Assembly (NCBI GenBank): GCA_020724585.1
Contig: DYGS01000001.1
Span: 674,535 to 738,534, forward strand
Reading direction: 5' to 3'
DNA from: Candidatus Microgenomatus sp.
GTDB lineage: Bacteria; Patescibacteriota; Microgenomatia; UBA8517
Length of the DNA: 64,000 bases
Each line of letters begins with the position of its first letter. Positions within the stretch are counted from its first letter, which is position 1. The position numbers and the translations under genes were made by a program. The notes beneath the pieces are model-generated. The model did no database searches. It saw nothing but the letters and a program-made list of their open reading frames with translations, and was not told where the DNA came from. Positions 48,535-49,031 of this stretch are shown here, one piece after another.

Positions 48535-49031
48535 AAATCATTTACCACTTTTTTAACTACTTGTTCTACTCGTACTGCTTCTTCTTTAGTAAAATCCTCA
48601 AGAACATAGTCCTCGCCTTTAATTTTAGTGCCTAGTGCCTGTTGCCTATTTTCTATTCCCACTCTAACATGCCAGAAATTTCTAGTGCCTAATGCCTCAT
48701 AGATTGAAACTAGTCCCTTGTGTTCTTTCGGTCCTTTGCCAAACTGAATTTTATATTCCCCAAGTTTTATATCTAAATCATCATGAATAATATACAATGC
48801 TTCAGGCTTTATGCTGTATGTTTTAAGGTTTTTGAAAACAAAAGAACCGGAATCATTCATAAACTTGTCTGATTTGAGAATTTTAAATTGTTTTGAGTTT
48901 TGGATTTTTGGGTTTTTTGACCTGCCTGCGCAGGCAGAGTTTTTTAAATCATCAACCACTACATATCCCACACTGTGGCGATTGTTTCTATATTTTTTTT
49001 CAGGATTTCCTAAACCAATGACCAGCTTCAT
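48513..49031 (-). CDS. pth: Peptidyl-tRNA hydrolase
   Basis: 'LVIGLGNPEKKYRNNRHSVGY', 'FMNDSG', 'IHDDLD'. Contains in-frame family-A and family-C repeat segments. Confidence 0.85.
   Translation of the reverse strand: MKLVIGLGNPEKKYRNNRHSVGYVVVDDLKNSACAGRSKNPKIQNSKQFKILKSDKFMNDSGSFVFKNLKTYSIKPEALYIIHDDLDIKLGEYKIQFGKGPKEHKGLVSIYEALGTRNFWHVRVGIENRQQALGTKIKGEDYVLEDFTKEEAVRVEQVVKKVVNDLCKKLAI

Follow-up and report, generated by a model that had tools for sequence, protein, structure and literature searches.

Short tandem-repeat arrays common to housekeeping genes and ribosomal RNA insertions in a Microgenomatia genome

Results

Octamer arrays in three coding genes and in 23S rRNA

The stretch of DNA analysed here, hereafter the window, comprises 64,000 nt from Candidatus Microgenomatus sp. 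(assembly GCA_020724585.1, contig DYGS01000001.1, positions 674,535 to 738,534), a genome with a G+C content of about 36%. It carries pth, an ATP-dependent DNA ligase gene and recF, which lie close together, as well as 16S and 23S ribosomal RNA (rRNA) genes. Each of the three coding genes contains one copy of a short repeat, here named family A, which also makes up the arms of three hairpin insertions in the 23S rRNA gene (Table 1). The identities of the three proteins were assigned by searches of 5.8 billion proteins, and their nearest orthologues (62–70% identity, BLASTP) are named Woesebacteria, Microgenomates or Patescibacteria; the organism is therefore an uncultured, Woesebacteria-like bacterium of the Candidate Phyla Radiation (CPR). 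Since contigs from independent assemblies (744 kb and 644 kb) encode exactly the same Pth, ligase and RecF proteins, the repeat is not an assembly artefact.

Table 1. Family-A arrays, their host genes and adjoining features, in window coordinates. ORF, open reading frame; IVS, intervening sequence.
Feature	Position	Strand	Description
pth	48513..49031	minus	host ORF; peptidyl-tRNA hydrolase, PF01195
Family-A array in pth	48881..48920	minus	sense TCAAAAAACCCAAAAATCCAAAACTCAAAACAATTTAAAA; encodes SKNPKIQNSKQFK
GC-rich palindrome	48922..48937		perfect palindrome CTGCCTGCGCAGGCAG, directly adjoining the pth array; translated within SACAGRS
ATP-dependent DNA ligase gene	50880..52580	minus	host ORF; PF04675, PF01068, PF04679
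Family-A array in ligase gene	52248..52293	minus	4.9 octamer units; encodes LSKTQKIKNSKNQN
recF	55093..56175	minus	host ORF
Family-A array in recF	55363..55394	minus	sense TTCAAAAACTCGAAAAATCCAAAACTCAAAAT; encodes QKLEKSKTQNYQ
23S rRNA gene	19484..22564	minus	host of three hairpin insertions
23S insertion 1	22088..22234	minus	142 nt at about model position 285, in place of 4 in the Rfam model
23S insertion 2	21652..21798	minus	about 150 nt after model position 583; helix-25 region, a classical IVS site
23S insertion 3	20866..21012	minus	near model position 1200 by arithmetic rather than from the alignment, which would be the helix-45 region

The repeat had been recognised in the initial annotation as a 15-mer, GAGTTTTGGATTTTT, whose recurrence was judged too frequent for chance. 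Allowing one mismatch, we found seven matches in the window against 0.08 expected from dinucleotide-preserving shuffles, and none of 100 shuffles reached seven. Four matches are in the 23S rRNA gene and one is in each coding gene. Three of the copies are exact (48895-48909 in pth, 55368-55382 in recF and 22118-22132 in 23S), and those at 52264-52278 in the ligase gene and at 20889, 20969 and 21676 in 23S have one mismatch. The best matches of the pth, ligase and recF copies elsewhere in the window reached 34/40, 28/32 and 32/40 identities; the corresponding maxima in Markov-3 simulations were 29, 24 and 29, and in each case 0 of 200 simulations attained the observed value. The recurrence is thus well beyond chance. 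The initial annotation also had the peptides right (SKNPKIQNSKQ in Pth, SKTQKIKNSKNQNVQ in the ligase and EKSKTQNYQ in RecF), as well as the in-frame position of the repeat in all three genes and its presence in the arms of the 23S insertions.

The 15-mer is itself part of a longer repeat, being the core of a tandem and imperfect octamer array of 30–46 nt and 3.5–5 units, resembling (AAAAACTC)n and built from units of the AAAAACTC / AAAAATCC type, for which Tandem Repeats Finder (TRF) reported a period of 8 and 2.5–4.9 copies. The copy in pth includes a non-array tail, CAATTTAAA, which is also present in the 5′ arms of all three 23S insertions; its best match is the 5′ arm of insertion 3 (20955-20994), with 85% identity over 40 nt. 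The ligase copy (sense sequence CTCTCAAAAACTCAAAAAATCAAAAACTCAAAAAATCAAAATG) has a 16-nt period at 100% identity and is located in a linker within the N-terminal DNA-binding domain. An element that is short, repeated and tolerated inside essential genes had been proposed initially. The repeat is indeed non-random, but it lacks the ends of a discrete element and takes the form of an imperfect octamer array that belongs to a clade-wide class with units of 7–8 nt (see below), and recF is not an essential gene.

The A-rich strand is the sense strand in all three coding copies. In (AAAAACTC)n the T-rich strand has stop codons in all three frames while the A-rich strand is open in all three, so that only the A-rich orientation can survive in genes and this orientation rule requires no function. 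The reading phase is the same in pth and the ligase gene (KIQNSK and KIKNSK) and different in recF (EKSKTQN). An exact 19-mer, AAAAATCCAAAACTCAAAA, is common to pth and recF, and because it is read in different phases the likeness of these two copies lies at the level of DNA and not of protein. No complementary partner arm was found near the coding copies, each of which consists of the 30–46-nt A-rich arm alone. The exact 19-mer also had at least 120 matches in unrelated metagenome contigs from a collection of 241 million records, single-copy and mostly in unrelated contexts; this may be the chance level for an A-rich 19-mer, with little information on the present genome.

Hairpin insertions in the rRNA genes

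The three 23S insertions are mutually homologous and about 145 nt long each, at positions where the Rfam model has 0–4 nt. Insertions 1 and 2 are 91% identical over 118 nt. Each of the three folds into a single long hairpin, with a ΔG of −44.3 kcal/mol (z −6.5) in insertion 1, −30.8 kcal/mol (z −3.3) in insertion 2 and −36.9 kcal/mol (z −4.9) in insertion 3; 0 of 200 shuffles folded as well as the native insertions. In each, a family-A array forms the 5′ arm and its complement forms the 3′ arm; by construction the 3′ arms are also complementary to the coding copies over 15–30 nt. While the 15-mer, initially taken as the unit of these arms, does occur in both of them, the true unit is that of the array with its 8-nt period, arranged in three homologous hairpin insertions. 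The insertions place extra sequence at conserved 23S helix tips and have complementary termini that form a long stem, as expected of RNase III-type intervening sequences (IVSs), and they would probably be removed as such. An Rfam search of the window returned rRNA and tRNA genes only, and no family that covers the arrays.

The 16S rRNA gene, also on the minus strand, has two 86-nt insertions near its 5′ end (29905-29990 and 30109-30194) that are 97% identical to each other. Both are hairpins with arms of GTAC-type heptamer arrays (AGTACAA / AGTACTA). The GTAC-type family is further found in a hairpin in the 23S-tRNA-Ala spacer (22750-22815), at 12354-12407 upstream of ORF 11265-12347, and in coding sequence at 37318-37352. 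The 16S sequence leaves the consensus after GTACACACCGCC (around 28722), probably because its 3′ end is divided by a large intron-like insertion. Three ORFs for LAGLIDADG homing endonucleases lie in or beside the rRNA genes (27867-28361, 18731-19351 and 17857-18312). The 16S, 23S and 5S genes do not form a linked cluster but are separated by several kb. In the rRNA spacer region between tRNA-Ala and tRNA-Ile, inverted repeats of 83 nt that are 99% complementary (23698-23780 and 24836-24918) surround ORF 23842-24681 (279 aa, no Pfam match); this unit is possibly a mobile element.

Protein positions occupied by the arrays

In an alignment of 31 orthologues, the RecF array segment, KLEKSKTQNYQT, falls between the invariant PHRDDF and the SRGEQR signature. 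Most orthologues have 3–4 residues at this site and a few have other, unrelated extensions; the array adds 9–10 residues, close to the initial estimate of 8–10 residues relative to E. coli RecF. An AlphaFold model of RecF (mean predicted local distance difference test score, pLDDT, of 89) places residues 262-273 at the distal part and tip of a β-hairpin, with a local confidence of about 76, and so bears out the proposed surface loop. The Pth segment follows VVDDL and precedes FKILKSDK. Minimal orthologues from the CPR have almost nothing there, the array adds about 14 residues relative to them, and canonical Pth has its β2-β3 region at this site.

The ligase linker is different. It is longer in archaeal ligases (for example the Sulfolobus enzyme 2HIV), and the segment in the window is only 4–5 residues longer than the modal Woesebacteria form. 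Both the Pth and the ligase sites vary in length among 120 orthologues each. Of the three segments that had been regarded as candidate lineage-specific insertions in loops, those of RecF and Pth are such insertions, and that of the ligase occupies a native linker of variable length.

The same sites in related genomes

The gene order recF-ligase-pth is conserved in relatives, so a single ligase-profile scan of genome contigs yielded 71 loci (1.22 Mb; labelled L below, with individual orthologous proteins labelled P) from Woesebacteria, Collierbacteria and allies. They include pth in 58 cases and recF in 60, and none of these relatives exceeds 72% identity. At the three sites these loci very often have arrays of 7–8-nt units or palindromes, with units that differ among genomes and a patchy spread. 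Ligase-site units include (AGTACTA)n in L026, which encodes QYKVLSTKYSV, (CACAGTT)n in L031, L061 and L065, GTTACGAG in L011, L024, L027 and L058, and (AAAATCA)n in L023; L004 has a perfect 28-nt palindrome instead. The recF site contains (TTCAAAA)4 in L064 and (AGTCACN)4 in L061, and (AAAACTCA)3 is the DNA behind the SKTQKLKNSK-type peptide at the Pth site of the syntenic relative L072.

Three peptides recur at the ligase site among the 120 orthologues, SKTQKLKNSK, Y(K/R)VQSTKY and KVKGKS, and they are scattered over a neighbour-joining tree of the ligases that was built without the site. Identical peptides in orthologues from unrelated lineages had been named beforehand as a sign of native protein sequence rather than insertions, and this sign is partly present. 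Near-identical, SKTQKLKNSK-like peptides do occur in other Woesebacteria, at the ligase site (P0124, P0132, P0142, P0171 and others) and at the Pth site (P0254 and P0305). However, their distribution is patchy, SKTQKLKNSK is the exact translation of (AAAAACTC)n, and it is also found in non-homologous proteins. For these reasons, we regard it as recurrent or old repeat DNA at hot spots and not as native protein.

Palindromes are found at the same sites. One of them, CCTGCCGGCAGG, is related to the palindrome in pth and occurs in frame in the ligase of L054, between two arrays, and in recF of L027. At the third ligase site, L054 has the order array-palindrome-array, with a palindrome (CCTGCCTGCCGGCAGGCAGG) close to that beside the pth array of the window. 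We also considered GCCTGCCGGCAGGC, with seven copies in the relatives, as a dispersed palindrome family, and rejected this because four of the seven represent one orthologous site in the zinc-finger region of Fpg (L001:5412, L014:6344, L017:594 and L027:6922), where it is translated ACRQAG and provides a cysteine codon. It is translated LPAG in recF (L027:8187) and in the ligase (L054:5403), and the palindrome in pth of the window is a variant of it.

Family-A arrays in Collierbacteria-like loci

The family-A unit is abundant in Collierbacteria-like loci, although their ligases are only 46% identical to that of the window. We counted at least ten arrays in 22 kb of L040, six in L055 and five in L052. 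All are gene-sense and have 3–8.8 copies, and all are 27–36 nt long save one of 70 nt. Roughly half are in frame, at the third ligase site after RVQIHF, in an exonuclease loop after DDIIGT and in a TrxB loop. The others are intergenic, often directly after a TATTAT box upstream of a gene.

Four orthologous sites could be compared between these genomes. There, L055 has perfect (AAGAACTC)n, L040 has AAAAACTC / AAAAAATC units and L052 is mixed, which means that arrays are more alike within a genome than between orthologous counterparts. L039, L041-L044, L046-L051 and L060 have an empty third ligase site, and L053, L056 and L070 have different units there. In the ligases of L055 and L041, which are 79.5% identical, the site is filled in the former ((AAGAACTC)4.5) and empty in the latter, where only AATAAGAACGAG is present; this empty site contains a unit-like AAGAAC seed. 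Adenine mutagenesis of the diversity-generating retroelement type was rejected as the source of the unit variants because these also differ at C and T positions and because the L055 arrays are perfect.

We considered whether the L040 arrays might be complete 5′ leaders that end at the ATG, but several of these ATGs soon run into stops and the true starts are 45–75 nt further. An array abuts the start only at one small conserved gene. Here, (AAGAACTC)8.8 at L055:18083-18152 and (AAAACTCA)3.4 at L040:20163-20189 stand directly before the ATG of a small protein beginning M(T/N)(I/V)EEKKKLQVA; the box before the array, as seen in L055, is TATATTAT, and this is the clearest case of an array as a whole 5′ leader. 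In the window, many genes (for example 5972, 25492, 45164, 46753-47259, 50880-52580 and 52912-53193) have a TATAAT-like box 5–9 nt before the ATG and no Shine-Dalgarno sequence. A box so near the ATG suggests that leaderless or near-leaderless mRNAs are common here.

A clade-wide class of arrays

Arrays with a period of 7 or 8 and at least 2.8 copies number 12 in the window, where Markov-3 simulations gave 0.75, and 119 in the 71 loci, where they gave 18. At a TRF score of at least 40, densities were 7.8, 3.7 and 6.8 per 100 kb, whereas 100 kb of pSOL1, an AT-rich Clostridium plasmid, contained none. Five arrays in the window reach this score; pSOL1 has only a few short, weak 7–8-nt arrays of A and T alone. 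About two thirds of the arrays lie inside ORFs. Arrays with 7–8-nt periods are characteristic of Woesebacteria, Collierbacteria and other Microgenomates.

Three heptamer families in the window act like family A, the GTAC-type, TAAATGC and TATGCTN heptamers. A thioredoxin-reductase-like ORF (37163-38137, minus strand, Pyr_redox_2) contains five AGTACTT heptamers in frame at 37318-37352, encoding PSTKYKVLSTKYS in the loop between GYI and the GVF(A/V)SGD motif. A peptide of this type (QYKVLSTKYSV) occupies the ligase hot spot of other Woesebacteria (L026, P0127, P0151 and others). TAAATGC-type arrays encode NAK(F/L)QMLN. One, at 55097-55130, forms the 3′ end of recF and gives PNAKFQMLN at the RecF C-terminus. 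The other, at 46145-46177, encodes LNAKLQMLNTKL at the N-terminus of a small ORF with a heavy-metal-associated domain (46138-46383) and has the opposite genomic orientation.

TATGCTN heptamers are found at three gene junctions and, in frame, inside the 5′-3′ exonuclease gene (61817-61851, IASSIEHKAYST). Between this gene and a glycosyltransferase gene lies a free-standing gene of the 23S_rRNA_IVP (S23p / Avd-like) family (60861-61286, minus strand, Pfam E = 2.8e-36). It is bordered by inverted TATGCTN arrays (60844-60875 and 61263-61291, with another at 59681-59717), like an ORF-bearing IVS outside rRNA.

The genes that host family A have other repeats as well. A second array in pth (48626-48648) consists of AGGCA-type heptamers and encodes NRQQALGTK at a second length-variable Pth site; a partner of 88% complementarity to this array lies at 31888-31919, inside ORF 31773-32825. 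At the same Pth site, the insert in L072 is another one, KVPQVSGVPRVPRG. In the ligase gene, CCTTCGACAAGCTCAGGG (52048-52065, encoding LRQAQG) has a copy with two mismatches in 23S (19879-19896). L038 has this sequence at the same ligase site, and L019 and L034 have it at their third ligase site, read there in a different frame (PSTSSGQD). It apparently represents a further dispersed repeat family of these genomes.

Discussion

Origin of the arrays

Our preferred explanation, to which we give a probability of only slightly more than one half (about 0.55), is that the arrays are a dispersed class of oligo-repeats at permissive positions, which are copied or converted between loci and passively translated. 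Arrays would settle where extra or arbitrary sequence is tolerated. At rRNA helix tips, an array and its inverted copy would form a long hairpin duplex with the architecture of an RNase III-type IVS; intergenic DNA just upstream of genes would be another such location; and in hypervariable surface loops and linkers, a single A-rich arm would be translated to a peptide rich in Lys, Asn, Ser, Thr and Gln that may well be neutral. New copies would come from DNA copied from one locus to another, which would also keep existing copies similar. This would probably proceed by ectopic gene conversion or template switching, starting at runs of A-rich codons that resemble a unit, with slippage contributing locally, and selection would remove copies that break the frame.

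Several observations weigh against this explanation. The ligase array occupies a native, length-variable linker with no net insertion relative to archaeal homologues, and the ligase and thioredoxin-reductase arrays both fill linkers of native length without adding to them, which fits overwriting or evolution in situ better than simple insertion. Neither terminal inverted repeats nor a target-site duplication were present in the flanks of the three coding copies, and no donor or enzyme was found for them. The coding copies are at most 6.5 kb apart, which leaves room for local effects. Only six family-A loci were found in about 80 kb (the window and additional DNA of the source contig), with no further copy in the roughly 15 kb beyond the window. 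That all intergenic copies in relatives are gene-sense is not predicted by a purely neutral model. As the ligase tree is a simple neighbour-joining tree of a near-star phylogeny, it does not prove patchiness. Sharing of 13-mers between variable-site DNA of the same genome was weakly positive in the relatives (0.058 versus 0.032 per 10 kb), one reason being that unit families are common to different genomes, and the 11-mer version of this comparison was too noisy. Finally, at a lenient TRF threshold the arrays are only 2–4-fold enriched over the real AT-rich control.

An unlikely alternative, although one that accounts for the tandem structure and the seeds, is a purely local origin by cryptic simplicity. 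Here, replication slippage would extend each array in place, starting from an A-rich seed within a loop or rRNA helix tip that is free of constraint, without transfer between loci; the loci would be alike because they have a mutational bias in common and because all require codons that are hydrophilic and free of stops. The tandem, imperfect arrays have a 7–8-nt period and often fill native-length linkers, a seed already exists in the empty L041 ligase site, and the A-rich orientation is open in every frame. Moreover, the tandem heptameric repeats of the Coxiella IVS vary in number among strains (PMC4990558). The arrays thus have the head-to-tail units and variable copy number of slippage-generated simple sequence, but not its independent copies. 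Slippage does not account for the exact 19-mer that pth and recF read in different phases, for the non-repeat tail common to the pth copy and the IVS arms, or for matches between loci that lie far above simulations. Units that are not A-rich (GTAC-type, CACAGTT and GTTACGAG) behave alike and are also common to rRNA insertions and coding regions. In addition, L055 has one perfect unit at five loci and L040 has another variant at the orthologues, which would require dozens of parallel substitutions without transfer.

Slightly less probable still is that the arrays function as cis-elements, at the level of RNA or of DNA, and co-evolve with a trans factor, in which case the coding copies would be regulatory sites and not passengers. 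They could serve as unstructured, A-rich modules of the leader or enhancer kind, or could be bound by a protein or RNA specific to the genome; a candidate RNA would be a 3′ arm released from an IVS that pairs with the pth, ligase and recF mRNAs, to which these arms are complementary. Such a function would agree with the gene-sense orientation of the Collierbacteria-like intergenic arrays, their frequent position after a TATTAT box and the one array that abuts an ATG. It would also agree with the homogeneity of unit variants within genomes and with the conservation of the octamer between lineages whose ligases have diverged so far. Yet no family-A copy lies in a leader within the window, sites are patchy and often empty in close relatives, and one unit family takes the place of another at a given site, which is evidence against a function tied to that site. 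The gene-sense bias could equally be a replication-strand bias, since most genes are co-oriented. Excised IVS RNA is reported to be quickly degraded in Coxiella (PMC4990558), and we identified no trans factor.

More speculative, and in our view doubtful, is a variant in which the arrays in leaders, coding loops and rRNA insertions are genome-wide cis modules matched to one trans-acting template or partner per genome. In one version, templated rewriting from a master copy would periodically overwrite permissive sites, and the Avd-like 23S_rRNA_IVP protein could be involved. In the other, complementary arms released from the IVSs may act as antisense RNAs on array-containing mRNAs and so couple ribosome synthesis to expression. 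Either version would explain why unit variants are homogeneous within genomes, why distant Microgenomates have kept the octamer and why the intergenic copies are gene-sense.

The view that these are ordinary low-complexity Lys/Asn-rich linkers, native to their families in an AT-rich genome and sharing a word by compositional accident, could appeal to the 36% G+C, to the similar peptides in some orthologues, to the many metagenome matches of the 19-mer and to the few weak arrays on the control plasmid, but it is largely refuted by shuffles and Markov-3 simulations that never reproduce the matches, by DNA-level identity across reading phases, non-homologous proteins and rRNA, and by a control with no arrays scoring at least 40 where the window has five.

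Implications

Overall, the tolerance of repeat DNA within genes appears to be a habit of the whole clade. Arrays that recur at the same loops in many lineages, with units homogenised genome by genome, would make a tractable comparative system for the spread of small repeats in tiny genomes with few recombination functions. The arrays would mark insertion-tolerant loops. They would also inflate the apparent divergence of proteins and create spurious low-complexity 'motifs' in CPR proteomes, and they can mislead rRNA-based surveys. A link would be made between coding repeat DNA and the short uncharacterised rRNA insertions of CPR bacteria, the origin of which is an open question (PMC11270868, PMC4990558).

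Comparison with known systems

Two classes of dispersed repeats were considered and rejected. A miniature inverted-repeat transposable element would have the terminal inverted repeats and target-site duplication that the three coding copies lack, and no transposase was found near these copies. DNA uptake sequences (DUS/USS) consist of one motif at about one copy per kb, whereas family A has six loci in about 80 kb and several unrelated unit families coexist in the window.

We know of no report of recurrence at orthologous protein loops for the small repeats of Neisseria (REP2 and Correia) or of pneumococcus (BOX and RUP). These resemble the present arrays in being dispersed, in lying near promoters or start codons and in sometimes being fused in frame to ORFs (PMC3184786). 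They differ in size (35–200 bp) and in having a defined internal structure or terminal inverted repeats instead of arrays of 7–8-nt units (PMC3184786).

In concept, the arrays also resemble eukaryotic cryptic simplicity and the co-evolving expansion segments of eukaryotic rRNA. Eukaryotic cryptic simplicity concerns multi-copy rDNA with unequal exchange between the copies, while here we are dealing with a tiny bacterial genome and a single set of rRNA genes. In eukaryotes, Tautz, Trick and Dover in 1986 and Hancock and Dover in 1988 reportedly described the build-up of short, scrambled motifs in tandem wherever rRNA and proteins are unconstrained, and how the expansion segments of one rRNA have common motifs through concerted evolution. 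Unlike in the eukaryotic case, the motifs of the window are common to rRNA, intergenic DNA and unlinked single-copy protein genes.

The 23S insertions resemble the RNase III-type IVSs of Salmonella, Leptospira and Coxiella in being helix-tip hairpins, including the classical helix-25 and, probably, helix-45 regions, with a long stem formed from complementary termini (PMC4990558). Short insertions without ORFs have been recorded in CPR 23S rRNA at the sites 23IS2 and 23IS4, their nature being uncharacterised (PMC11270868). What sets the present genome apart from known IVSs is the presence of three homologous copies in one 23S rRNA, plus two insertions in 16S, and arms composed of oligo-repeat arrays that also occur in protein-coding genes, a link not described in PMC4990558 or PMC11270868. 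The literature that we searched contained no description of 7–8-nt arrays common to CPR rRNA insertions and protein-coding loops. A further likeness to RNase III-type IVSs is the 23S_rRNA_IVP-family gene of the window, which lies among inverted heptamer arrays.

To our knowledge, Rickettsia is the main known case of housekeeping genes that contain repeat DNA in frame. The Rickettsia palindromic elements (RPEs) are said by Ogata et al. in 2000 to occur in RNA genes too. As reviewed in PMC3184786, RPEs are the closest system in behaviour, being small repeats of non-coding type that lie in frame in housekeeping genes of a bacterium with a reduced genome. Like the arrays, they are translated, at tolerant surface positions in conserved proteins (PMC3184786). 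The same source describes them as discrete palindromes of 105-146 bp with the entire element inside the ORF, whereas the coding copies here are arrays of 8-nt units, 30–46 nt in length, that represent a single arm. Because they are single-arm arrays and not complete palindromes, and because only the rRNA copies are palindromic, family A does not belong to the RPEs on architecture. Unlike RPEs, moreover, several unit families coexist here and recur at the same orthologous loops in many lineages, and the organism, one of the Patescibacteria, is unrelated to Rickettsia. The present arrays would thus extend in-frame repeats in housekeeping genes to the CPR, with a different architecture of 7–8-nt units in tandem.

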